From the IMG/VR virus record IMGVR_UViG_2648501920_000014, positions 1-37,057 of that record: a DNA stretch of 37,057 nt; one strand, written 5' to 3'. Below, piece after piece: positions 1 to 31,860 of the stretch. Under the pieces are notes generated by a model, which was given only the letters and a program-made list of their open reading frames with translations, made no database searches and had not been told where the DNA came from. Numbering within the stretch: the first letter of the stretch is position 1; each line of letters opens with the position of its first letter. This stretch comes from a virus (Duplodnaviria > Heunggongvirae > Uroviricota > Caudoviricetes). The translations under genes were made by a program, and so were the position numbers.

Positions 1-483
1 CTATCTGGTCAGGGTGTCGTACTGTTTTTCACAGACTCTTCCGGCTTCGGCTGCCCGGTCAGCATACTCTGCCAGTTGTCTGTTTCTCTCGAGAGATTTA
101 CTGAGCACGTCGGCAAGCAAAACTCCGGTGTCTGCGGCTGACGTCCCAGCGCCGACAATGGCGTTATACTGCCTGAGCTGCTCACGGATGGCAACGAGCT
201 GTTGCTGCAACCTGCCAGCGCGAGCTGCAGCATCAAGAGCATCATTGCGCGCCTGGTCGATCCTCTGCTGCGCTTCACGTTCATTGATCGCTTTCTCCTG
301 TTCGTAGTGCTGACGAATTCTCTCATCTTCGGTTTTGCGGTCTTCTTTCGCCTGCGCATACCCGGCGTCGTACTGACGACTGCCGTGTACACTCCAGGCA
401 ACAACTCCTGATATGACCAGAACAGCAAGCACCGCCATGATAATCAACTGTTTCCGGTATGCTTTTACGAATGCCAAGATCAT
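1..483 (-). CDS. Rz-like i-spanin (lysis)
   Basis: ATG at 483, stop at 1-3; N-terminal TM helix then Q/R/E/A-rich coiled-coil; last gene of the lysis cassette, overlaps endolysin stop by 4 nt. Confidence 0.6.
9..284 (-). CDS. Rz1-like o-spanin lipoprotein embedded in Rz
   Basis: Alternative frame fully inside Rz; ATG at 284; basic n-region [12 protein letters not shown], hydrophobic core, lipobox LAGC, Ser/Pro/Thr-rich mature part. Start choice uncertain (ATG at 245 also possible). Confidence 0.4.
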   Translation of the reverse strand: MNVKRSRGSTRRAMMLLMLQLALAGCSNSSLPSVSSSGSITPLSALGRQPQTPEFCLPTCSVNLSRETDNWQSMLTGQPKPEESVKNSTTP

Positions 484-1109
484 ACCGCCAGCACCTTACT
501 GGCATTGATGTATCGCGCGCGCCGGTCGTCGATGCCGTTCCGGCCACCATTGATAATCAGAGTTACACGTGCAATATCGCCGGTATACTTCATGCATCCT
601 TTGCTGGCAAAGAACCACGCCGCGCTACGAGCCGCGTATTCGTCCTGCGCCAGCAGTTCAGGACTCTCCAGCAGGTCAACCTTAAGACCGTTTCCACAGT
701 CACGATAGTTATTCAAACCGGTAACCTGGATAAGCCCGCGCCCACGGTAGTTCCAGCCATCACCAGGGGCATTGTTCCCCATGCGTTTGCTGTACACCAG
801 ATTGGCAATCGCTCTCTGGCGCTCAAGTGGCAATGGTGGTTCGCCTGCACGTCGCCCCAATGCGTTGGCCTGTCCCTGAGTGAGACGCCCAGCCCGAACA
901 AAGTTAGCCAGTCCGCTGACGCTGTAGTTGAAATTCTCCTGCAACCGGGTGAAGCCTCCAGACTCATGCCCGACCTGAGCAATAAACATAGCCTGATCTT
1001 CTGGTTTGCTGATACCAAACTCTTTCATCGCAGAAGTTATATGCGAGAACCAGCGTGCGGCCAGTGCCTCGCTGATACCAGCAGCTCGCTGGAATTGTTT
1101 AATCTCCAT
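480..1109 (-). CDS. Endolysin, glycoside hydrolase family 19 (chitinase-like lysozyme)
   Basis: ATG at 1109; motifs [18 protein letters not shown] and NY typical of GH19 phage endolysins; sits between holin candidates and Rz. Confidence 0.8.
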
Positions 1110-2297: not shown

Positions 2298-4483
2298 GAA
2301 ACTTCCCCATTGGTTGAAAATATGGCTCCTCCAACGCCAAGTGTATTTCGTGTTGTGCTCAACCTCAGAGGGCTGGAGTCAGAATTAGAATATCCTGTAG
2401 CAGAAATAAAAGATCCTCCACTAATAGTCAACTGCGGAACATCGGCTATATCTGAATAAGTTCTGTCAGCAACAGTATTATTTATAGCCACATATGATCC
2501 AAAAAAACTTCTTATTGTTTGGTTTTTAACTTTACTTCCTTCAATGGTTATCCTACTACCACAGTCGGCAATAAATCCTGAATCTGCATCCAGCGTTGCA
2601 TTCATAAAAGAAGCTTCAGATCTCTCTACATCAATCCATCTAATATCTTTTGTGGGATTTGCACCAAATACATGACAAATATTAGAGTTAAACCTTACAC
2701 CATCTTGGAGGTGCATTAATTTTTTTATATCTGTACCCCATAGCCTTGGAAAATTAACAGATGCTCCTGCATGGCAATCAAATCCCAGCTCAGCCCCTGA
2801 GATATCTACAGCCTTTCCTGAAATAACAGCACCAGTGTCTGCATTAACGGCTGTTCCACAATTGCGCATATCATTACCAGCAACATCAACGCAACCCGCA
2901 CCATCAATACGCACACCAAGTGCACATCCATAAAAACCTTTTTCAATATTTGGTTCAAGGACTTTACCACTTGTTTCTGCATCACTTTCTTCAACGTCAT
3001 GTCGTCTTGCATCAACATATGCTGTATGAATGCAGGTTAATCCACGATATGAGCAATGTATAGTTTTATGGTCGCGTATATTAACATTTGAACCATCTCT
3101 TACATTCCATCCTATATAACAATAGCTTGCACTTGACCCCTGAAAATCTGCTTTAACATTATAAATACAATTAACTGACGCAACCGTACTCTCTGTGCAC
3201 CGTTCAAACTTGCTTACAGGCATTGATGCCTTGACATTATTTACCAGTTGCAGGGAAGAGTATCTGCTATAAGAAAAATCACATACGTAATACCCTTCTG
3301 GCATATATGCAGCAACACTTTCCTCATCAGGAGCACATCCGGTATGATATGCACTAATTTTTGCACCAAAACTACCATGAATTCCAACGTAGAACTTTCG
3401 AGCACCTGAATACGGATAGAAATTAAGTTCAGCTTTTTGAGTTACAATAAATGCACAAACATCGCTATCATCTCTATTTTCTTCGATCTGAATAGCAAAT
3501 ACAGGACTTTTTGCTGCATCGCAAATGTAAAATAAATACTTGTATTCGTAATACGTTCTAACGATTTTAGTAAACAAACGAGTGTCAGAGAAAACCACTG
3601 AGTCTTCTGATGTTATTTTAATCCAAGACAAATCAACACCTGAACTGAATTCAATTTGATAGTTGATAATATGCCCGGTCTTAATTCTTATTTCGCAGAA
3701 AGCATTACCACCATCCCACATAGGTCTCATTGACTGGGCTGCAATGATTGCATCTTTGAGTGTAGGGTAATCACCCCATTCGCCAACAGTAATAACAAAA
3801 GTATAATATGAGTTAAAAACAGCGGCATTTTTGCCTTTGGATATCAACTCCTTAATCATAAAAATATTATCTTCGTAATCACAAGGAGAAATTATATCCC
3901 TCATTTTGCTTTGAAATGTTCGTTGTCTTGCCCCGCTTCCTGACGGTATAAACCAACCAAAACCACCAACAACCCCGGCGATTGCAGCATCGACATAATT
4001 ACGCATTGAGCGATTATTTACAGCGTCCTGCTCAAATGATGGATCTGCAAGGTTAGAAATTTTGTTTTGCTTTGCATCGTAATATTTTGCAAGCAAAGAT
4101 GGTTTCATCAATGCACGTCTGAACCACCCAAAACATCGCTGGATCAGCATCGTCAGGTAGTCAAATGCATCTTCATGAACTTCGGGGAAAAATTTTCCCT
4201 GATTGCGAAGATCAGTCTCCTGCACCACATCAAGCACACGCTCTATCGTAATTCGCCAGCCAGCAGCAAGCGGCGACGGGAGAACCACTTCACCGCCACT
4301 ATAAGTGCCCGCTCCAGTTACCTTATAACCGGTATCCAGAACCAATTCTGTTACGTTCCCGTTCAGGTCAGACACCTGAACAACCAGGTCGGTTTTTTTG
4401 AAAATACGGAAGGTATACGGAAATGATGTCGTAACGCCGTTACCGGTGTATTCGTTGTGGTCAACTTCGGTTGAGACCGTCAT
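2294..4483 (-). CDS. Tail fibre / tailspike with T7-type N-terminal anchor and beta-helix-like distal receptor-binding region
   Basis: ATG at 4483; first ~110 aa match the T7 tail-fibre N-terminal pattern; remainder is Gly/Asn/Asp/Val/Ile/Cys-rich and visibly AT-rich. Confidence 0.7.
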   Translation of the reverse strand: MTVSTEVDHNEYTGNGVTTSFPYTFRIFKKTDLVVQVSDLNGNVTELVLDTGYKVTGAGTYSGGEVVLPSPLAAGWRITIERVLDVVQETDLRNQGKFFPEVHEDAFDYLTMLIQRCFGWFRRALMKPSLLAKYYDAKQNKISNLADPSFEQDAVNNRSMRNYVDAAIAGVVGGFGWFIPSGSGARQRTFQSKMRDIISPCDYEDNIFMIKELISKGKNAAVFNSYYTFVITVGEWGDYPTLKDAIIAAQSMRPMWDGGNAFCEIRIKTGHIINYQIEFSSGVDLSWIKITSEDSVVFSDTRLFTKIVRTYYEYKYLFYICDAAKSPVFAIQIEENRDDSDVCAFIVTQKAELNFYPYSGARKFYVGIHGSFGAKISAYHTGCAPDEESVAAYMPEGYYVCDFSYSRYSSLQLVNNVKASMPVSKFERCTESTVASVNCIYNVKADFQGSSASYCYIGWNVRDGSNVNIRDHKTIHCSYRGLTCIHTAYVDARRHDVEESDAETSGKVLEPNIEKGFYGCALGVRIDGAGCVDVAGNDMRNCGTAVNADTGAVISGKAVDISGAELGFDCHAGASVNFPRLWGTDIKKLMHLQDGVRFNSNICHVFGANPTKDIRWIDVERSEASFMNATLDADSGFIADCGSRITIEGSKVKNQTIRSFFGSYVAINNTVADRTYSDIADVPQLTISGGSFISATGYSNSDSSPLRLSTTRNTLGVGGAIFSTNGEVS

Positions 4484-4602: not shown

Positions 4603-4641
4603 TTTGCAAAACGTGCTGGATAGCAAACAAATTATTTGATA

Positions 4642-4657
4642 CTGTATAAATATACAG
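4642..4657. promoter_or_regulatory. LexA (SOS) box CTGTATAAATATACAG
   Basis: Perfect CTGT-N8-ACAG with AT-only spacer, centre of an 18-bp near-palindrome; 21 nt upstream of ATG 4679. Confidence 0.6.
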
Positions 4658-4678
4658 TTATTGCATGGAGAAGATAAG

Positions 4679-4936
4679 ATGCAGCAGTATCACTATCCAC
4701 TGGAAGACGGATTTACCGAAAGGATTCACACGCCGGGAGGCGTCAGGTCACTGGTGGAGGGATCGCACTTGATGAAATTACTCCGGGATCTCGATAAGGA
4801 TGGATTTAATGTCGATGGCCCACTTGCCGAACTGACTGCACTAATTAACTACGTCACCAGCTCACAGATGTCTATGCGGGATCTGCAAACACATCTCGAC
4901 TATTGTGCCGAACAATTACGAAAACAAACCAGATAA
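4679..4936 (+). CDS. Small protein (85 aa), SOS-box-fronted; paralogue of the C-terminal domain of the adjacent Bro-N protein; candidate antirepressor
   Basis: ATG at 4679 with GGAG SD (track ORF begins at TTG 4661); stop TAA 4934-4936; by-eye alignment to Bro-N residues ~165-228. Confidence 0.55.
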   Translation: MQQYHYPLEDGFTERIHTPGGVRSLVEGSHLMKLLRDLDKDGFNVDGPLAELTALINYVTSSQMSMRDLQTHLDYCAEQLRKQTR

Positions 4937-6034: not shown

Positions 6035-6049
6035 TTACCTTAAAGGTAA
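6035..6049. promoter_or_regulatory. Operator-like inverted repeat TTACC-TTAAA-GGTAA
   Basis: Immediately upstream of GGAGG SD and ATG 6062; overlaps the -10 of a TTGCAG-17-TACTAT promoter (6007-6035). Confidence 0.4.
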
Positions 6050-6061
6050 AGGAGGCGCGAT

Positions 6062-6229
6062 ATGACAGCGTTGAAAAATCGTACTCAGCACAATGAACAA
6101 GCCAAGCAATGCTGGGATGTCATTGGAAAAGTTATGCTTGGCCGCGCAAGCAAAGAGCGCGACAAGGATATGGTTTACCAGACAGGAACATCTTTCAGCG
6201 ACTTCAAGGCGGCATTTCGCTCCAAATAG
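6062..6229 (+). CDS. Small protein (55 aa), unknown function; first gene of an AT-rich two-gene cassette
   Basis: ATG at 6062, GGAGG SD at 6051-6055, stop TAG 6227-6229; below the 60-aa track cutoff, read by hand. Confidence 0.4.
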   Translation: MTALKNRTQHNEQAKQCWDVIGKVMLGRASKERDKDMVYQTGTSFSDFKAAFRSK

Positions 6230-6249
6230 AAGCACATCAGGAGTTTTCC

Positions 6250-6690
6250 TTGAAGTTTAACATTAGAATATCTAATAGTTTTCTACATGGGGAAAGCAAC
6301 ACCCCTTTCGCTGTAGACGGACCTTTCCTTACTGATGATGAAATAAAAATCATACAAAGTTTTTTAGAGGATGTTGCCAATGGAAGGGCGCTTGTTGGAA
6401 AAAACAAGCCCTCGTGGGTTGATGATAACCATGATAAAATTCCCGGCTCAGACAATTATGAGCAAGAGAATTATTGGCATTATCATTGTGGGCCAACATG
6501 GTATCCAAACACATTTAAGAATTATACCATTAACTTAAATTTCAACCCTGGCGGAAGGCATTCTAATGAATGCATTCATTATGCAAAAAATGATAATGAA
6601 ATTGTCATTGTTGGATTTTCAAGAGAACACATACCTTTCCTTTCATCAGATGGAAACAACAATCCGCTTTTTAATGATGAAGAAGAATAG
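6250..6690 (+). CDS. Hypothetical protein (~146 aa), acidic C-terminus (NDEEE), AT-rich
   Basis: No internal Met; most plausible start is TTG 6250 with AGGAG SD at 6239-6243 (track ORF begins at ATG 6109, which would overlap the upstream gene); stop TAG 6688-6690. Confidence 0.45.
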   Translation: MKFNIRISNSFLHGESNTPFAVDGPFLTDDEIKIIQSFLEDVANGRALVGKNKPSWVDDNHDKIPGSDNYEQENYWHYHCGPTWYPNTFKNYTINLNFNPGGRHSNECIHYAKNDNEIVIVGFSREHIPFLSSDGNNNPLFNDEEE

Positions 6691-23157: not shown

Positions 23158-23172
23158 TTACCTTTCAGGTAA
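23158..23172. promoter_or_regulatory. Operator-like inverted repeat TTACC-TTTCA-GGTAA
   Basis: 15-bp dyad about 90 nt upstream of the 23067 start; a TTGACA hexamer lies at 23136-23141. Confidence 0.4.
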
Positions 23173-24156: not shown

Positions 24157-25632
24157 TTAAGCATAGGGATCGTAATCTGTGATGGCCTTGCCTTGCTGGT
24201 TCTGCTGCCCGGGAATTCGCAGACGCTTCGACACAGGGAACGCAAACGTCAGCAGTAGCGCATCGCCTTTACCAGGCGAACGCCCAAGCCGCTCCTTGAT
24301 ATCTTCCTTCGGTTCGATAACGATTTTACCGTCCACTCGAACTTTGTACTCTGCCGCCGACAGATCGTCCGCTGTTTCCTGGTCATCCAGCATCCCGCCC
24401 AGCCTCAGCCATGTCTTGCATGAGTTGAACATCTCCCCACGCTTGTTGAGCATCTGCTGGTCAGTAGACGCGCCACCGAACGGAACAAGTTGCCATGTGC
24501 GCCCCCAACCATCACCGATTGACTTCAGACCGGTACCGTAACCAAAGTCGATGAACACTGCGTCAGCCTGATACAGGTCTTCAAAGTCAGCGATACGCTT
24601 CGCCATAATCAGATCGTCGGTAGTCTTGTTGCCAGTCCACAGCACCTTACTGTGTAGCCCCTGCCGCAGGTATATCACCGCGTCATCAACGCCTGAATAT
24701 GCCGGGTCAACACCGATTATCACCGGAGCATGCGCCACCTGCGCAGCGGTTACCACCCGTTTCATTGCCTCATCAGTAAGACCGGTAGGGATAAACTGCA
24801 ATTCAGATGCATCAGGGAATATGCCGCGCACACGGATTTTAACGAAGTCGCTGTCTTCCCCGTAGTCATCAACCCATTTCTGCAACTGCTGTTTGTTAGT
24901 GCCTTCCACCGTCCGGCTGTCAATCTGCGCAGTTTTCCAGCGGTGTTTATATTTGCGGAAACATTCACGGAATCGCCCGGTATTACGCGTCGGGTTTCCG
25001 AACGCCACCCAGATAATCTCAGTGTCTTCGTCAGTTAGCGCACCTTCGGCAACTTCCCACACCAGATCCGCAATGTTCGACGCTTCATCGAATACCACGA
25101 TGATGCGTTTGCGCTCGTTGTGTAGTCCGGCGAATGCCTCAGTGTTGTGCTCAGACCAGGGGATTGCGTCAGCTCGCCACCGCTTGTCGTGCCCAGGATC
25201 ATTGCTGTACATCGCGGTAGCGGTACAGGTAAACCAGTCTTTCGTGATAGCAAGGTTCGACCACTTGATAATTTCCGGCCAGGTCTTCGTTCGTAGCTGG
25301 TTGTCGGTGTTGGCGGTCACCACGACCTTACAATCCTCGCAAGTGGACATGCCCCAGTTGATCAGCATTGAGATGAATGCGGATTTACCAATACCGTGAC
25401 CAGAAGCACGTGCCAGCATAAGCGGCTGATATCGCGTCTCTGGATTCTGCAGGTGATCACGTATCTCTCGGAACGCATCGGCCTGCCACTGACGTGGACC
25501 GGTGGCATGTGCCAGTTCAGTACCCTCTTCCCCCCACGGGAACGCATAGAGGGCATAGCCAAGCGGATCGTGAGTGAACCCTGCAATATCCTCGATCAAC
25601 TGCTCTTCAGGAGATAACGCTGTATCTGTCAC
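24157..25632 (-). CDS. Terminase large subunit
   Basis: GTG start at 25632 overlapping terS stop (GTGA); Walker A-like GHGIGKS; 491 aa with ATPase then nuclease layout. Confidence 0.85.
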   Translation of the reverse strand: MTDTALSPEEQLIEDIAGFTHDPLGYALYAFPWGEEGTELAHATGPRQWQADAFREIRDHLQNPETRYQPLMLARASGHGIGKSAFISMLINWGMSTCEDCKVVVTANTDNQLRTKTWPEIIKWSNLAITKDWFTCTATAMYSNDPGHDKRWRADAIPWSEHNTEAFAGLHNERKRIIVVFDEASNIADLVWEVAEGALTDEDTEIIWVAFGNPTRNTGRFRECFRKYKHRWKTAQIDSRTVEGTNKQQLQKWVDDYGEDSDFVKIRVRGIFPDASELQFIPTGLTDEAMKRVVTAAQVAHAPVIIGVDPAYSGVDDAVIYLRQGLHSKVLWTGNKTTDDLIMAKRIADFEDLYQADAVFIDFGYGTGLKSIGDGWGRTWQLVPFGGASTDQQMLNKRGEMFNSCKTWLRLGGMLDDQETADDLSAAEYKVRVDGKIVIEPKEDIKERLGRSPGKGDALLLTFAFPVSKRLRIPGQQNQQGKAITDYDPYA

Positions 25633-26225
25633 TGATTACCATCCTGACGTTCTTTGAGTCGCTTCCTGGCTGCCGCTATGCGATCAGCGATTGTCACATT
25701 CACATTAACATCCATGCGTTCTTTGAACGCGTTGACGTCGACGTGCTTACCAATCAGTTCGAGGTTCTTCACCTTGTCAGGCCATTTAATTTTTTTGAGG
25801 ATTGTCTCTATCGAATCCTCGTTCATGTTCATGATGGTCGATGACAGATCAAAGCCACTAAGCGTAGTGCGCCAGATTTTCGGCCACTCGCGGATTGGCT
25901 TAAGGCTCCCATCGTCGTTGAGGATATCAATCACGTCCATCTGGTCGATCTCCACCAGGCGCATGAGAACGTAATCAGCACTGACACGCATTCGTTTGTT
26001 GCGCTCTTCCATCAACTCGGCAATCCGTTTTTGAATGCGTTCATCGCGCATCATGACACTGGCTTTAACTGCCGCTGTATTTGGGGAGAATCCTGCGTTA
26101 ATCGCTGCCTGAGTCTGGTTTTCAGGCGTTTTGATGTATGACTGACAATAAGCCTCCTGCATTGCTGTGAGCGGCTTAAATTGCGTTGATTTGCGTTTAT
26201 AGGTTTTAGGTTCAGCAGGCATCAT
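25629..26225 (-). CDS. Terminase small subunit
   Basis: ATG at 26225 (track ORF extends to TTG 26303); HTH-like segment TAMQEAYCQSYIKTPENQTQAAINAGFS; directly upstream of terL. Confidence 0.6.
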   Translation of the reverse strand: MMPAEPKTYKRKSTQFKPLTAMQEAYCQSYIKTPENQTQAAINAGFSPNTAAVKASVMMRDERIQKRIAELMEERNKRMRVSADYVLMRLVEIDQMDVIDILNDDGSLKPIREWPKIWRTTLSGFDLSSTIMNMNEDSIETILKKIKWPDKVKNLELIGKHVDVNAFKERMDVNVNVTIADRIAAARKRLKERQDGNQ

Positions 26226-26257
26226 AACCACCGTGGTAATAGTTACCGTTGTGGTAA
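26225..26257. promoter_or_regulatory. Two adjacent operator-like repeats (TAACC-ACCGT-GGTAA and TTACC-GTTGT-GGTAA) at the terS start
   Basis: Sites at 26225-26239 and 26243-26257, overlapping the terS start codon and its SD. Confidence 0.4.
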
Positions 26258-26299
26258 TAGTACCATGCAAAATAAAGCCGCCATAGTTGGCGGCAGTAT

Positions 26300-26512
26300 T
26301 CAAAGCCCATCAAATTCATCGTAAAAACTCTCGTCAAGATACCCTTCCCATTTACCGCGAATGAAAATTACATCCTCGCCGCAAGGGTGCTGACTGTCGA
26401 TAACTATATCCCTCCTGGAGCAACCATACTTATGCATGAGAAATTTAATCTCTTTCGGAAAATTTGCTGAGTTATCTCTCATATCTTCAAGGTCGTAGCG
26501 TATTTTTGGCAT
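26300..26512 (-). CDS. Hypothetical protein (70 aa)
   Basis: ATG at 26512 with AAGGTG SD (track ORF starts at GTG 26533 inside the palindrome); stop TGA 26300-26302. Confidence 0.45.
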   Translation of the reverse strand: MPKIRYDLEDMRDNSANFPKEIKFLMHKYGCSRRDIVIDSQHPCGEDVIFIRGKWEGYLDESFYDEFDGL

Positions 26513-26521
26513 AACACCTTC

Positions 26522-26533
26522 GTGACATGTCAC
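26522..26533. repeat. 12-bp perfect palindrome GTGACATGTCAC (copy C), with ATAACACC nearby
   Basis: 10 nt upstream of ATG 26512 on the minus strand; shares the GGTGTTAT flank with copy B. Confidence 0.5.
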
Positions 26534-26670
26534 ACTATTAATTTCGTTTCATGCCAGCCTTTAGTCACCCAGCATTGCGAGTCACCATTACACGGGCATG
26601 AATTAACGGGAACTCTCTCGCCGCACTTACCGCAACGTTTTCTGCTGATCGATTTTATACGCCCGTGCAC
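26530..26670 (-). CDS. Possible small zinc-ribbon protein (46 aa, GTG start), or -1 frame extension of the upstream 55-aa ORF
   Basis: Hand-translated: VHGRIKSISRKRCGKCGERVPVNSCPCNGDSQCWVTKGWHETKLIV, with CxxC...CxC...C spacing; no ATG in frame; stop TGA overlaps palindrome C. Confidence 0.25.
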   Translation of the reverse strand: MHGRIKSISRKRCGKCGERVPVNSCPCNGDSQCWVTKGWHETKLIV

Positions 26671-26699
26671 GCGTGCATCATCCTGGCGGATCAGTAACG

Positions 26700-26867
26700 C
26701 TATATACTCACCAAATTCGTAAGGCGCACGCCCGGGCGACGCGCGGCACAGTTACGCTCAAGCATTTCAATTTCCTGAGCATCAAGCACAATTTCCAGCT
26801 TACGCACACCAGATGCAGCTTGTCTGGATCTCTGAGCGGCTTTGCGCTCTGCTGCTGATTTAGCCAT
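26700..26867 (-). CDS. Small basic protein (55 aa), unknown
   Basis: ATG at 26867 overlapping the upstream gene end (GATGGCTAA); stop TAG 26700-26702; below track cutoff, hand-translated. Confidence 0.35.
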   Translation of the reverse strand: MAKSAAERKAAQRSRQAASGVRKLEIVLDAQEIEMLERNCAARRPGVRLTNLVSI

Positions 26868-27141
26868 CAATATTTACCTTTATCGCGAACACCTTTACCG
26901 ACTTATCGCCGAAGTGAGGATGTGTGATTGTCTTGATTTCATATCCGTCATACGGGACGTCAATTCTGCGGCTGGAATCGTCGCGCTTCGGATATCCCTT
27001 TGTGATAATCAGGCGGTCATACTCGCGGAACATAATTCGCTTATTCCAGTAGTCATTACACAGGCGATACTCTTCCGTTTTCTCTCCGCGAATCATGGCA
27101 TCGAAGAATTCACCTTTAACGGCAAGTTGCAGGTTAGCCAC
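26860..27141 (-). CDS. ASCH/DUF3850-like small protein (93 aa)
   Basis: GTG start at 27141 overlapping upstream stop; motif LAVKGEFFDAMIRGEKTEEYRL resembles the ASCH-like pattern from memory. Confidence 0.45.
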   Translation of the reverse strand: MANLQLAVKGEFFDAMIRGEKTEEYRLCNDYWNKRIMFREYDRLIITKGYPKRDDSSRRIDVPYDGYEIKTITHPHFGDKSVKVFAIKVNIDG

Positions 27142-27715
27142 GGTTAACCTCCTGCGGCGGTTCCGGTAGCGGCATCCAGTGAGTTACGTCATCCAAGATA
27201 TTTCCTGATAAATACGTGAAAGCTCTATATTTTTTGTAATCAATTGGATTTACAACCCAGTTCCAATATGCGGCCACGATTTCACCTTGACTAAATGCCA
27301 GTAACATTTTGGTGTCTTCCGGCATTCGATCACTACAGCTTATCCAACCACCCGGAGTTACCGGAGAGTTGCCCGATGGATCGTTCAACTTGCAAGTTTG
27401 GCTTACAGGTTCGGCTTCCAGTTCTGCTATGCGCTTTTTTGCTGCTTCCAGCTCGCCAAGCAGCGCCAAGACGGTAGCCGGATTGGCTGCGGCGATGAAT
27501 TCAGCATTGGCCTGCTGTTCCATTTGGAAATCTTCATCGAAACCGCTTTCTGGATGCGCTCCTTCAATTTTGCAAATGGGAATATATCCAGCAACTTCAC
27601 GATGAATTAGCGCATCATCACCATCAAATCGGCTCTCTCCATATTCGAGCGACCACTCGCCACACGTTGCTTTTTCTGCCTTAGCACGCAGTGCCTGATT
27701 GTCAATCTTGCTCAT
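27134..27715 (-). CDS. Ead/Ea22-like protein with C-terminal DUF551-like domain
   Basis: ATG at 27715; N-terminal coiled-coil AELEA region; C-terminal WISCSDRMPED...THWMPLPEPP motif. Confidence 0.5.
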   Translation of the reverse strand: MSKIDNQALRAKAEKATCGEWSLEYGESRFDGDDALIHREVAGYIPICKIEGAHPESGFDEDFQMEQQANAEFIAAANPATVLALLGELEAAKKRIAELEAEPVSQTCKLNDPSGNSPVTPGGWISCSDRMPEDTKMLLAFSQGEIVAAYWNWVVNPIDYKKYRAFTYLSGNILDDVTHWMPLPEPPQEVNRG

Positions 27716-28269
27716 TGGATGACTCCTTTACGAAGCTGTTCGGCGATATCTTCGAGAACGCCATCAGAGAATGAGCGATCAAAATCGCCTTCCGGCGCAT
27801 TAGCCATAAACTCAGTAGAGGTAAGAATCATCCGGGCAATATCAGCGGCGTTCTTCGCAGTATCATCAATAAAACCAGCTTCCCAGGCAGCCAGCATTCT
27901 GTTCGCCACAAAGTAAGCGCCTTCCTTGCGTGCTTCAGTCTTCCCTTCAGCCAGGAAAGCATCGGTGACTGGCATATTTCCTGTTGCCTTCATGGCCTCC
28001 AAAATAACCAGAACGCCATCTCTCCCTACCTCCTCGCAGATAACCTCGGTGTTGTCGCCAACAACATCGCAGAATGCCTGAACTGCTTTACGAGCAAGTG
28101 CATTCTCCGCCGCCAGCGCATTAGCACGCGCCAGTTGCACTTCCAGTTGCGTTGCCAAATCGCTGAGCAGCTTTGCCACACTACGCATATCAACGGCACC
28201 ACATTCTGCTTTCAGTTCCGAAGCCATCTCATGCCCGGCGGCAACTAACTCTTTGATATTACTTTCCAT
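27712..28269 (-). CDS. Hypothetical protein (185 aa)
   Basis: ATG at 28269; ATGA overlap with the downstream gene; nin-like region. Confidence 0.5.
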   Translation of the reverse strand: MESNIKELVAAGHEMASELKAECGAVDMRSVAKLLSDLATQLEVQLARANALAAENALARKAVQAFCDVVGDNTEVICEEVGRDGVLVILEAMKATGNMPVTDAFLAEGKTEARKEGAYFVANRMLAAWEAGFIDDTAKNAADIARMILTSTEFMANAPEGDFDRSFSDGVLEDIAEQLRKGVIQ

Positions 28270-28330
28270 CTTTACCCTCGCTTATCCACATAACTTATTG
28301 ATTACATTGATAACTAAAAAGATCGTCGAT

Positions 28331-28675
28331 TCAGAACTCTTCGATGTTCCAGCCACCACCTGCTTTCTTTGGTTTAACCGTTACCCCGATGATTCGGAAC
28401 GGATACTGATCTGCGGCGACTTTGGTTTTCACCCTGGCGTCGTCGGTCCAGAAACCTTTCACTTCGTGCAGTTCCATCTCTCCGGTGGCGAGCATCACAG
28501 CGAAATCGGGCGTATAAAACGTGTTGTCAGCCAGCCGCAGCTTGATACCCTCAAATCGATACCAGACGATTTCTCCTGCACGTTTACGCAGCTCAAGGTG
28601 CTGGCAATACGCAGATTCTGTTTTGTTCATCTGGCCTGTTTTGAGTCGACCAAGAGCCTGCATCTGTTTTCTCAT
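28331..28675 (-). CDS. DUF1064-like protein (114 aa), possible PD-(D/E)xK nuclease fold
   Basis: ATG at 28675; motifs NKTESAY, YTPDFAV, ELHEVKGFWTDDARVKTKVAA recalled from DUF1064 proteins of lambdoid nin regions. Confidence 0.45.
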   Translation of the reverse strand: MRKQMQALGRLKTGQMNKTESAYCQHLELRKRAGEIVWYRFEGIKLRLADNTFYTPDFAVMLATGEMELHEVKGFWTDDARVKTKVAADQYPFRIIGVTVKPKKAGGGWNIEEF

Positions 28676-28678
28676 GAT

Positions 28679-28693
28679 TTACCCCTTAGGTAA
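28679..28693. promoter_or_regulatory. Operator-like inverted repeat TTACC-CCTTA-GGTAA
   Basis: Ends 3 nt from start codon 28675; the repeat spacer contains that gene's SD. Confidence 0.4.
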
Positions 28694-28740
28694 TTAAAAA
28701 CCACATAAGACACGAAATCAATAGATTTTAGAATATTTTA

Positions 28741-28755
28741 TTACCTCTAAGGTAA
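28741..28755. promoter_or_regulatory. Operator-like inverted repeat TTACC-TCTAA-GGTAA
   Basis: Second copy in the same intergenic region, centres 62 bp apart. Confidence 0.4.
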
Positions 28756-28792
28756 TTATCGAGACGTAAAAAAATGCGCTATCGCGCTGGTA

Positions 28793-29578
28793 TTACTTGA
28801 TAAATCCTGACGCCTTTCCCCGCCTGTATTCCTCCATCAGCCACTGCGCCGGTGTTATTCCCCCAAGGGTGGCGGCGTTAGGCATGCACCCGAAACTTCG
28901 CCCTGGTGGATGGTAAACGTCTCTCCCTGTGTCCGGAGGCGTACTCATGGGTTCTGGCTTTGCCTGTATGCTGATCACCGGATCGGGTATCTGCTGTCCG
29001 GAAGCCACCTTTTTCGCCCAATCATCGAGCAGCCTGCGCGCGTGTTTCTCAACCTCAATCTCGCTAAGCTGGCGCTGATACATTGCACGGCGGGTATCAC
29101 ATACGACCCAGTACATAACCGGATGTCGCCACGGGAATCTTTCGGGACCACCAGGATATAAACTTTTTTCCTTGCTGTACCGGTGAAACTCCGCCATCAC
29201 ATCGTCAATGGTGACGCCAAGAACCATCTTGCTGTCTTTACACCACTTGATGAATTGCCCTGGCGACGGCCAGAACGGAGACTCACTGGCGCGGGCGTGG
29301 CGCATACCAGCAGAAACCTGTTCACGGGTTCGGATCCCCCCTTCGGCAAACGCAGCAATCCACTGCTGTTTTGCAGCAACTTCCTGCTCTGGCGTCTTCA
29401 GGTTGGTTACCACTGCCGCCGGAAACAGTTGTTTCAGCTGTTTGAAAAGGGCATCAACAAGCCTCTCTGCTGACATGTTCACCACGTTGTCATTGTTGGT
29501 GTACTGATGCTCATAACCTGACATGCGAGAAAGGGCTTCTCCGTCACGGTTTTGTATCGCGGTAAAAACGTTGTTCAC
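28793..29578 (-). CDS. Replication protein P-like (DnaB helicase loader)
   Basis: Aligns by eye to lambda P (LFPA, EQVSAGMRHAR, PFWPSPGQFIKWCKD vs PFLPSPGQFVAWCRE); GTG at 29578 has GGAGGA SD and GTGA overlap with O-like stop (track start is ATG 29593). Confidence 0.7.
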   Translation of the reverse strand: MNNVFTAIQNRDGEALSRMSGYEHQYTNNDNVVNMSAERLVDALFKQLKQLFPAAVVTNLKTPEQEVAAKQQWIAAFAEGGIRTREQVSAGMRHARASESPFWPSPGQFIKWCKDSKMVLGVTIDDVMAEFHRYSKEKSLYPGGPERFPWRHPVMYWVVCDTRRAMYQRQLSEIEVEKHARRLLDDWAKKVASGQQIPDPVISIQAKPEPMSTPPDTGRDVYHPPGRSFGCMPNAATLGGITPAQWLMEEYRRGKASGFIK

Positions 29579-30756: not shown

Positions 30757-30987
30757 TCATGAGTAGAAGAAGTATGCCAGTTCTGCTTTTGAGCGCAGCC
30801 ATTGTCTTGTTTTACAGGCTTTAAAAAGCCCATTCATCAATACTTTACCTGGCATTTTGCGCTTACCTGTTAAGTGAGTCTGGATATAGTGACTCGTCGT
30901 TCCGGCTTCCTGTGCGAAGGCTTCACGCTCATCCGGAGTAAGTGCAAGCCAGTGCTTTTTGAAATCGAAATGTCCGTTATCGCTCAT
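30757..30987 (-). CDS. Cro-like / CII-like HTH regulator (76 aa)
   Basis: ATG at 30987; HTH-like LTPDEREAFAQEAGTTSHYIQTHLTGKR; divergent from the repressor across the operator cluster. Confidence 0.5.
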   Translation of the reverse strand: MSDNGHFDFKKHWLALTPDEREAFAQEAGTTSHYIQTHLTGKRKMPGKVLMNGLFKACKTRQWLRSKAELAYFFYS

Positions 30988-31023: not shown

Positions 31024-31086
31024 TCACCCATAAGGTAACAAAAATCAAGGATAGTTACCTATGAGGTGCATTTACCTGTTGGGTAA
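31024..31086. promoter_or_regulatory. Operator cluster (OR-like): three inverted repeats between the cro-like and repressor genes
   Basis: TCACC-CATAA-GGTAA (31024-31038), TTACC-TATGA-GGTGC (31055-31069), TTACC-TGTTG-GGTAA (31072-31086); last two abut. Confidence 0.5.
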
Positions 31087-31141: not shown

Positions 31142-31726
31142 ATGAAAAGTATCCAGGACGTCCGCAGGCAAAATCTCAACGACTTGATCGACCGTGAATT
31201 CAATGGTGTTCAGACGCGGATGGCAGAAAAACTTGGAACTCAGGCAAATCTGGTAAACCGCTGGGCTCTTGGCAAGAAGGTTATCGGCGACCAGGTTGCG
31301 CGAAAAATTGAAGCTGCCGCCAATAAACCACGTAACTGGCTTGATATCGATCGCTCGCTTTCTCAGGAAGGTTTTCAGCCTGTCGGCCCAAGCGACATTG
31401 GTCAGCTGGCGGCTCACAACCTGGAACGCTGGATGAGCGAAAGCCGCGACCTTTCAACACAGGGAAAACTTCACCGCGCATCCGGCGTCGCCCAGGTGAC
31501 AATCAGCCGCCTGTTAAACAATGAGGTCAGCGTTTCCATTTCCACCCTGGAGAATGTTGCATCCGCATTCGGGCGTCACGGCTATGAATTACTGATTCAC
31601 CCGCACGACCCTGCGACCATCAACTATGACCGCTCGCGCTACGCATTGTTACCCGAAACCGAGAAAGCAAAGATCGAAAGTTACATTGAATTTGTCATCA
31701 ACCAGAACGAAAAAAACAAACAATAA
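31142..31726 (+). CDS. Phage repressor with two HTH domains and no S24 autocleavage domain
   Basis: ATG at 31142; two HTH-like segments (LGTQANLVNRWALGKKVIGDQVARKIEAAANKPRNWLD and ASGVAQVTISRLLNNEVSVSISTLENVASAFG); no Ala-Gly cleavage site or Ser/Lys dyad seen; stop TAA 31724-31726. Confidence 0.65.
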   Translation: MKSIQDVRRQNLNDLIDREFNGVQTRMAEKLGTQANLVNRWALGKKVIGDQVARKIEAAANKPRNWLDIDRSLSQEGFQPVGPSDIGQLAAHNLERWMSESRDLSTQGKLHRASGVAQVTISRLLNNEVSVSISTLENVASAFGRHGYELLIHPHDPATINYDRSRYALLPETEKAKIESYIEFVINQNEKNKQ

Positions 31727-31783: not shown

Positions 31784-31860
31784 TTACCTTACGGGTAATT
31801 TTTTTAACTCATATCTATTGACATCAAACCAAATACGAATAATCATTACCTCAACGGTAA
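31784..31860. promoter_or_regulatory. OL-like region: two operator repeats flanking a TTGACA promoter
   Basis: TTACC-TTACG-GGTAA (31784-31798), -35 TTGACA (31818-31823), TTACC-TCAAC-GGTAA (31846-31860) over the likely -10/+1; followed by GAGG SD and ATG 31880. Confidence 0.5.

Follow-up and report, generated by a model that had tools for sequence, protein, structure and literature searches.

Two adjacent copies of a TTACC-N5-GGTAA dyad stand directly upstream of terS, the gene for the terminase small subunit, in the window (the whole 37,057-nt stretch of viral DNA analyzed here). Both lie in non-coding DNA, both are conserved among relatives, and their family also includes the operators that flank the repressor and cro-like genes of this prophage. 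They are likely to be operators of the prophage's own immunity repressor, Rep, which would shut off a promoter dedicated to terS and terL. An earlier note had proposed that the immunity repressor represses the packaging operon directly, and the motif family, the non-coding position, the conservation and an annotation in the record of phage epsilon15 all support this proposal at the level of sequence.

By megablast, positions 25000-29000 belong with the epsilon15/phiV10 group of temperate podophages (Uetakevirus), the matches being phiV10, TL-2011b, ZX5, PAS61, Tyrion, SPN1S and epsilon15. Judged by this similarity, the window is an epsilon15/phiV10-like prophage, and its gene span, from the lysis genes to the integrase gene, matches the order expected of an integrated prophage. 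The genes of the terS-terL region are on the minus strand, with small open reading frames (ORFs) upstream of terS. The junction contains the following features.

24157-25632, minus strand: terL, which forms a two-gene unit with terS; the unit ends at a terminator in relatives.
25629-26222, minus strand: terS, 197 aa, Terminase_2; starts at the conserved ATG 26222-26220.
26225-26239, no strand: candidate proximal operator (O-proximal); TTACCACGGTGGTTA on the minus strand, with one mismatch; contains the Shine-Dalgarno (SD) sequence.
26228-26232, minus strand: SD sequence GGTGG of terS, 5 nt upstream of the conserved ATG.
26243-26257, no strand: candidate distal operator (O-distal); a perfect TTACC-N5-GGTAA dyad, with a 17-mer form at 26242-26258.
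26257-26265, minus strand: candidate extended -10 promoter, TGGTACTAT, with TG at 26265-26264 and the hexamer TACTAT at 26262-26257.
26269-26294, minus strand: intrinsic terminator, a GCCGCC-AACTAT-GGCGGC stem-loop (26294-26277) followed by TTTATTTT (26276-26269).
26300-26533, minus strand: ORF of 77 aa, phrog_1541, function unknown, with a TGA stop at 26302-26300.

The order on the minus strand is the stop of the upstream ORF, the intrinsic terminator, the TGnTACTAT element, the distal operator, the proximal operator over the SD and the ATG. Written out, the junction reads GCCGCCAACTATGGCGGC TTTATTTT, GCA TGGTACTAT, TTACCACAACGGTAA (distal, 26257-26243), CTA, TTACCACGGTGGTTA (proximal, 26239-26225), TG ATG (26222). 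Exactly this junction is found in about 100 of 5,426 complete E. coli genomes. The 77-aa ORF is missing in phiV10, epsilon15 and Tyrion, where a gp49-like regulator gene ends in its place. The earlier description of the region as a 74-nt gap with the dyads inside it holds, but the genes run on the minus strand and the gap also contains the terminator at 26294-26269, which had gone unmentioned.

Both dyads are present where they had been reported. On the plus strand, 26225-26239 reads TAACCACCGTGGTAA, with one mismatch to TTACC-N5-GGTAA, and 26243-26257 reads TTACCGTTGTGGTAA, a perfect match; read on the coding (minus) strand the two are CTATTACCACAACGGTAA and CTATTACCACGGTGGTTA, 18 bp apart. 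They had also been described as overlapping both the start codon and the SD of terS. The proximal dyad does cover the SD (GGTGG, 26232-26228), but it leaves the conserved ATG (26222-26220) free and overlaps, by a single base, only the first ATG (26225-26223), which is not conserved.

The same motif recurs across the genome. With at most one mismatch, TTACC-N5-GGTAA occurs at 13 sites in the window, compared with 0.52 +/- 0.67 in shuffled sequences, and all 13 are intergenic. All 14 sites of phiV10 likewise fall within the 6.7% of its genome that is intergenic. The related features of the window are these.

31142-31726, plus strand: immunity repressor Rep, 194 aa, two HTH regions, HTH_3; presumed ligand of all the dyads.
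30757-30987, divergent from rep: cro-like gene, with the three-site operator cluster between the two.
31024-31086, no strand: OR-type operator cluster, sites 31024, 31055 and 31072, between the rep and cro-like genes.
31784-31860, no strand: PL-type operator pair, 62 bp apart, flanking a TTGACA promoter that faces the recombination genes.
28679-28755, no strand: DUF1064 operator pair, 62 bp apart, with a sigma70-like promoter ahead of the DUF1064 gene.
23158-23172, no strand: operator upstream of the portal/structural operon, homologous to the annotated epsilon15 repressor site 2931..2947.
4588, 4968, 6035 and 30687: other single sites, the first two in the tailspike/ant intergenic region and the third before a Bro-like gene.
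4679-4936: ant-like ORF with a perfect LexA box before it (4640-4658), a likeness to the switch of phage SPC32H.

The positions of these sites relative to promoters and leaders vary. Site 31846 directly follows the -10 of the PL-like promoter, and site 28741 is within the spacer of the sigma70-like promoter TCGATA-16-TAAAAT, whereas site 28679 sits on the SD of the DUF1064 gene with the same geometry as the proximal terS site. The OR cluster includes an adjacent pair at 17 bp, comparable to the 18-bp pair at terS, and such 17-18-bp pairs recur at the DUF1064 promoter in the relatives L017 and L018.

The two terS dyads differ in strength when scored with a weight matrix built from the non-terS sites of relatives only. 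The distal dyad reaches 21.1 bits, whereas 200 shuffles give at most 18.3 bits, and it ranks 9 among about 37,000 positions. The proximal dyad scores 7.1 bits (rank 13), which is weak by itself, although it is 18 bp from a strong site and exceeds the middle OR site, 31055, at 5.7 bits. Three of the four terS half-sites carry an A at position 6, a base absent from the window's other 24 half-sites and common in the operators of epsilon15 and SPN1S. Because of this difference from the other half-sites of the window, the affinity of the candidate terS operators for Rep may be low.

Whether the dyads are non-coding depends on the start of terS. The annotation of phiV10 and that produced by PGAP let TerS begin at the counterpart of TTG 26303, for a length of 224 aa, and this long form would enclose the terminator and both dyads in the coding sequence. 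The earlier note had raised the same start as one that would place the dyads inside terS, and it is contradicted by the sequences of relatives. Indels of 1-2 nt and unrelated upstream DNA close the terS frame 1-13 codons before the conserved ATG in BUCT711, L009, L012, L013 and L015, and Tyrion, epsilon15 and L014 have ACG at the place of the long start. In addition, the Terminase_2 domain already begins at residue 18 of the short, 197-aa TerS. The start at TTG 26303 is rejected on these three grounds. Together with the GGTGG located 5 nt upstream, they place the terS start at ATG 26222 and, by the same comparison, both dyads in non-coding DNA. The extra ATG at 26225 is restricted to the E. 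coli lineage.

Conservation was examined in the regions upstream of terS from 18 sequences, eight phages and ten prophages, drawn from 10 enterobacterial genera; the prophage hosts are Pseudocitrobacter, Citrobacter (two species), Klebsiella, Erwinia, Scandinavium, Superficieibacter, Kluyvera, Pseudescherichia and Buttiauxella. Across the compared genomes, the dyads are kept at -35/-36 (distal) and -17 (proximal) from the terS ATG, with a spacing of 18-20 bp among relatives. All 18 have the distal dyad. Its outer pentamers are conserved except for one TTACT and one AGTAA, and the 5 bp at its center are free (ACAAC, ACAAT, ATAAC, AAAAC, AAAAT, ATATT, AAATC, TAAAA and TTCAT). The proximal dyad is recognizable at -17 in 15 of the 18, in forms such as TTACCACGGTGGTTA, TTACCCTGGTGGTTA, TTACTTCGGTGGTAA and TTACTCAGGTGGTAA. 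In SPN1S and SPC32H its left arm is weakened to TTGCT, and in BUCT711 and L016 (Kluyvera) the proximal dyad is degenerate. Most relatives have GGTGG, GGCGG or GGGTG as the SD itself; L018 is among the exceptions.

The repressor accompanies the motif in these genomes. Wherever the flank of a locus extends into the immunity region, a Rep homologue is present (40-73% identity), and the Rep-bearing loci have the same motif at OR, PL and the DUF1064 promoter. The recognition-helix region of Rep (NLVNRW) is conserved among homologues, and all 37 phage records and all Rep-bearing prophage loci (Rep 40-100% identity) use one TTACC/GGTAA core, so that there is no variant specificity to compare.

The unequal conservation of the two dyads raises the question of whether only the distal one functions, with the proximal one a by-product of the terS ribosome-binding region (GGTGGTAAC) and a chance or decaying left arm. 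The low score of the proximal site and its erosion in BUCT711, L016 and SPN1S fit this explanation, as does the record of epsilon15, which marks the distal site alone. Furthermore, the AGGTAAC context at the proximal right arm also precedes the terS ATG in phiES15 and Aeromonas phage 2_D05, neither of which has Rep. (In phiES15, a divergent gene starts at the position upstream of terS.) However, most independent lineages have a TTAC(C/T) left arm with the proper spacing of 5 bp, the OR cluster accepts a site that is weaker still, adjacent pairs at 17-18 bp recur elsewhere in the operator family, and a tetrameric Rep has two DNA-binding units. On balance, we regard a lone functional distal site as rather unlikely and favor a pair of operators.

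Upstream of the pair, the terminator at 26294-26269 has a stem of seven pairs, six of them GC, followed by TTTATTTT, as expected of an intrinsic terminator. It is kept in 15 of the 18 relatives, with loop and wobble changes that preserve the stem, and the epsilon15 record labels its homologue rho-independent. This terminator closes the early-right operon.

Between the terminator and the distal operator, TGGTACTAT at 26265-26257 has the TGn plus TAnnnT pattern of an extended -10 sigma70 promoter. The predicted start is at about 26250, in the center of the distal operator, which leaves a leader of about 27 nt. No recognizable -35 was found at this site, and a simple sigma70 scan requiring both hexamers detected no promoter at the terS junction. 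TG.TA.TAT is invariant in the 18 sequences, whereas the 'n' base, the third hexamer base and bases further upstream vary; the relatives have TGGTACTAT, TGTTACTAT, TGATAGTAT, TGTTAGTAT and TGGTATTAT. L009, L012 and BUCT711 have unrelated DNA in place of the terminator and the upstream gene, and yet the TG.TA.TAT element stays with terS. A similar arrangement is seen in Aeromonas phage 2_D05, whose TerS is about 60% identical and which has no Rep hit and no dyads: a terminator is followed by TGGTATATT at -44..-36, the same offset as the element of the window, and then by terS. From this pattern, TGGTACTAT is probably a -35-less extended -10 promoter of terS-terL, and such a promoter may need an activator. 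A promoter that uses the distal operator as its spacer, as at 28741, is disfavored, as it would have poor -35 and -10 hexamers. In three other outgroups, vB_EcoM-683R1, IME1369_01 and phi297, terS is fused into a longer operon, so that they are uninformative about a dedicated promoter.

The SPC32H switch of Rep, Ant and LexA is reportedly described by Kim & Ryu 2013 and Kim et al. 2016 (PDB 5D50, 5D4Z), with the immunity switch as the focus. The Rep of the window is 100% identical to phiV10 p40 and is homologous over its full length to SPC32H Rep (PDB 5D50, E = 4e-42). The prophage and SPC32H have homologous repressors and the same layout upstream of terS, although their Rep proteins are only about 42% identical. 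A passage of PMC9638917, citing PNAS 2016, describes tetrameric binding of SPC32H Rep to palindromic DNA. When Rep was over-expressed in the near-identical phage ZX5, holin and endolysin mRNA fell by >99.9%; these were the only mRNAs measured, and that study maps no operators (PMC9782041). The ZX5 effect is consistent with direct repression, yet fits indirect control as well.

Taking these features together, we infer that Rep binds at terS and represses a promoter located there. terS and terL would constitute a separate two-gene packaging unit, insulated from the early-right operon by the upstream terminator and driven by its own -35-less extended -10 promoter. The distal operator would share its first base with the end of the -10 hexamer and span the predicted transcription start, with the proximal operator at about +12 to +26, over the SD. 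In a lysogen, one Rep tetramer, with its two pairs of DNA-binding domains, would probably fill both adjacent sites and thereby block RNA polymerase binding or promoter escape. Removal of Rep by the LexA-controlled antirepressor would then derepress the packaging genes. Such occlusion of a promoter appears to be the most economical mechanism at terS, because an operator also follows the -10 at PL and because site 28679, on the DUF1064 SD, mirrors the proximal site.

Rep could instead act as a roadblock. Here terS-terL would have no promoter of its own; transcription would enter from the promoter at about 28741-28762, through read-through or antitermination and perhaps with the aid of a gp49-like protein, so that bound Rep would serve as a second safety stop past the terminator. 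The missing -35 and the negative promoter scan are compatible with this arrangement, and in L009, L012 and BUCT711 the loss of the terminator makes read-through possible. A regulator gene immediately upstream is moreover conserved: in relatives the last gene before the terminator encodes a 112-aa 'transcriptional regulator' (epsilon15 gp49, phiV10 p55, phrog_536). A roadblock would nevertheless be largely redundant given the strong terminator directly upstream, and it does not account for an invariant TGnTAsTAT that travels with the terS module across mosaic joints, nor for the same layout of terminator and TGn-10 in the Rep-less outgroup. The gp49-like gene is also frameshifted in the window, being split by the loss of one nucleotide from a C-run (26729-26744); the missing base is present in the closest E. 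coli genomes. We thus consider the roadblock possible but unlikely, and less economical than promoter occlusion.

The earlier note had called for a search for a late activator or antiterminator upstream, having found no Q-type gene itself. In the two ORFs directly upstream (77-aa and gp49-like), there is indeed no Pfam or NCBIfam hit, to the Q family or to any other; their hits are phrog_1541 and phrog_536 'transcriptional regulator' only, and the second of these is the conserved but frameshifted regulator. The other ORFs in 26860-28700 were identified by name from the annotations of relatives, as ASCH, DUF551, Ea22-like and DUF1064. An additional late regulator besides Rep may therefore exist. 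In lambda, the antiterminator Q acts at PR'/qut and reads through tR'. The prophage resembles lambda in having a terminator before late genes that are silent in the lysogen, but its terminator precedes a promoter-like element and no Q homologue is found in the ORFs directly upstream. Lambda also lacks repressor operators on its late unit, whereas the window has them there.

Short repeats next to or inside terS could also be a packaging signal, that is, pac or TerS recognition repeats, either instead of or besides operators. The terS dyads resemble the R-sites of lambda cosB, SPP1 pacL/pacR and the P1 pac hexamers in this position; they are direct repeats with an 18-bp period adjoining terS, and several deposited genomes of the group begin within about 100 bp of them. 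TerS recognition repeats are specific to the packaging region, however, whereas the motif of the window is a genome-wide immunity operator, identical at 11-12 other intergenic sites that include the immunity region. The dyads are absent from Rep-less phages whose TerS is about 60% identical, and the start points of the deposited genomes differ between records and look like an annotation convention. A literature search found no paper on the virion DNA ends of Uetakevirus. We judge a packaging signal very unlikely. Control of terS translation by a leader hairpin that masks the SD is rejected as highly implausible: although the SD is inside the proximal palindrome and the departures from the DNA dyad in SPN1S and epsilon15 are compatible with G-U pairing, the RNAalifold consensus reaches just -1.12 kcal/mol with essentially no covariation, its structure avoids the dyad arms, and an Rfam search gave no match.

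The epsilon15 genome is said to have been published by Kropinski et al. in 2007. Its record (NC_004775.2 / AY150271.2) has seven protein_bind features labeled 'repressor / lysogeny', all ATTACC-N5-GGTAAT. One of them, at 12..27 directly before terS (47..643), is the homologue of the distal dyad and has the same 17-mer. The others, before gp3, the tail fibre gene and the resolvase gene and in three cases at PL, match sites 23158, 4588, 31784/31846 and 28741 of the window. The record differs in that only the distal site is annotated at terS, that its annotation is a prediction, and that neither the promoter element nor the conservation across genera is in it. The proximal site is better preserved (TTACCACGGTGGTTA) in the type shared by the window, phiV10 and Tyrion than in epsilon15.

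The other late units, namely the portal/structural operon and the tailspike, carry similar sites, and Rep accordingly appears to gate each transcription unit directly. A broader reading, which we put forward tentatively as a possibility, is that this phage group has no dedicated late-gene switch. One tetrameric repressor would gate every unit through dyad pairs at spacings of 17-18 or 62 bp. Besides terS-terL and the structural operon, these units would be early left and early right, the operon from DUF1064 to gp49, the Bro-like antirepressor and the tailspike/ant region. The -35-less extended -10 packaging promoter would predate the operators, because it is common to the Rep-less Aeromonas phage, and late timing would come from promoter strength or from Rep/Ant dynamics, with no activator or antiterminator setting it. 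Other phages silence many units directly with one immunity repressor; P1 C1 and mycobacteriophage L5 gp71 have a dozen or more sites genome-wide, late regions included. The prophage is like them in its single repressor and scattered sites. The C1 and gp71 sites are asymmetric, however, and the L5 stoperators are orientation-dependent and located inside transcribed regions, whereas the dyads of the window are symmetric, lie at promoters and 5' leaders and are often paired at 17-18 or 62 bp, which would suit a tetramer.

Direct repression of terS is already recorded for epsilon15 as a prediction at the level of annotation, and the gain in knowledge is small to that extent. What is added here is the corrected terS start, the proximal site, the context of a conserved terminator and an extended -10 element, and conservation across ten genera. 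terS is annotated 27 codons too long in phiV10 and in one inspected E. coli prophage copy (PGAP), and this overlong annotation leaves the terminator, the promoter-like element and the operators concealed within a coding sequence. Relatives of this prophage occur in at least 10 genera. Derivatives of phiV10 and SPC32H serve as reporter phages. If Rep does bind at terS, these widespread enterobacterial prophages would silence their packaging genes directly and not through a lambda-style cascade, and their lysis-lysogeny circuit would be simpler and easier to engineer.

The predicted Rep operators at the DUF1064 gene (28679/28741) and at the PL-like promoter (31784/31846) form pairs with exactly 62 bp between centers (61-63 bp in a few genomes). 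The spacing, compared at the same loci in the window, phiV10, Tyrion, epsilon15, SPN1S and the prophages of other enterobacterial genera L009-L014, is kept across genera; the exception is the DUF1064 pair of two further prophages, L017 and L018, where the operators are 18 bp apart. In each 62-bp pair, one operator sits within or beside the core promoter and its partner lies downstream. This arrangement suggests that a Rep tetramer could loop the DNA between the two sites.

The operator core itself appears to serve very divergent Reps. In the prophage of Klebsiella pneumoniae ATCC 13883 (L011), the 130 nt upstream of terS are identical to the E. coli/phiV10 type, despite a Rep that is just 45% identical to that of the window. 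The recognition-helix region, NLVNRW, is conserved between highly divergent Reps. In the Aeromonas phage 2_D05, the terS leader (region about -45 to -1) has two copies of ATTGACA in direct orientation, 13 bp apart, downstream of the phage's terminator and TGGTATATT element. These repeats stand where Uetakeviruses carry predicted Rep operators, and may be sites for the phage's own regulator.

Putative regulatory sites were also found next to two antirepressor-like genes of the window:

4640-4658, plus strand: perfect LexA box, TACTGTATAAATATACAGT, ~20 nt upstream of an 85-aa ORF (4679-4936)
6035-6049, plus strand: predicted operator adjoining AAGGAGG, a strong SD, and the ATG at 6062

The 85-aa ORF occupies the same position as ant in SPC32H and the gp19 gene in epsilon15, which, together with the LexA box, suggests that an SOS-controlled antirepressor switch like that of SPC32H is also present here. 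The operator precedes a Bro-N-type gene (6109-6690) whose product is named an anti-repressor in the ZX5 paper (PMC9782041), so this second antirepressor-like gene may likewise be under Rep control.

Three features concern terS and the region upstream of it:

26529-26867, minus strand: homologue of epsilon15 gp49 and phiV10 p55 ('transcriptional regulator', phrog_536), with a deletion within 26729-26744
26300-26533, minus strand: additional 77-aa ORF (phrog_1541), separating the gp49-like gene from the terminator
25629-26303, minus strand: over-long terS (phiV10 NC_007804.2, 41..715; E. coli NZ_AP042480.1, 2938429..2939103)

In relatives, the gp49/p55 homologue is the last gene ahead of the terS terminator. 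In the window, it lacks 1 nt from a C-run (CGCCCCGGG to CGCCCGGG) and is broken into two ORFs (26700-26870 and 26530-26670); putting the base back yields a complete 112-aa protein. The extra base is present in the closest E. coli genomes (702 nt versus 701 nt), and the window's deletion is a private mutation or else a sequencing error. The 77-aa ORF occurs in ~100 complete E. coli genomes and is missing from phiV10, epsilon15 and Tyrion. It looks like a moron-type insertion, since the ~20 nt that end in its stop codon (GATGAATTTGATGGG.TTTGA) match the corresponding stretch 5' of the phiV10 and TL-2011b terminators.

The terS gene is annotated 27 codons too long, from a 'long' TTG or ATG start, in phiV10, SPN1S and the inspected PGAP-annotated E. 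coli prophage; in TL-2011b, Tyrion, epsilon15 and SPC32H the short start is annotated. The over-long coding sequence conceals a terminator, a promoter-like element and two predicted operators.
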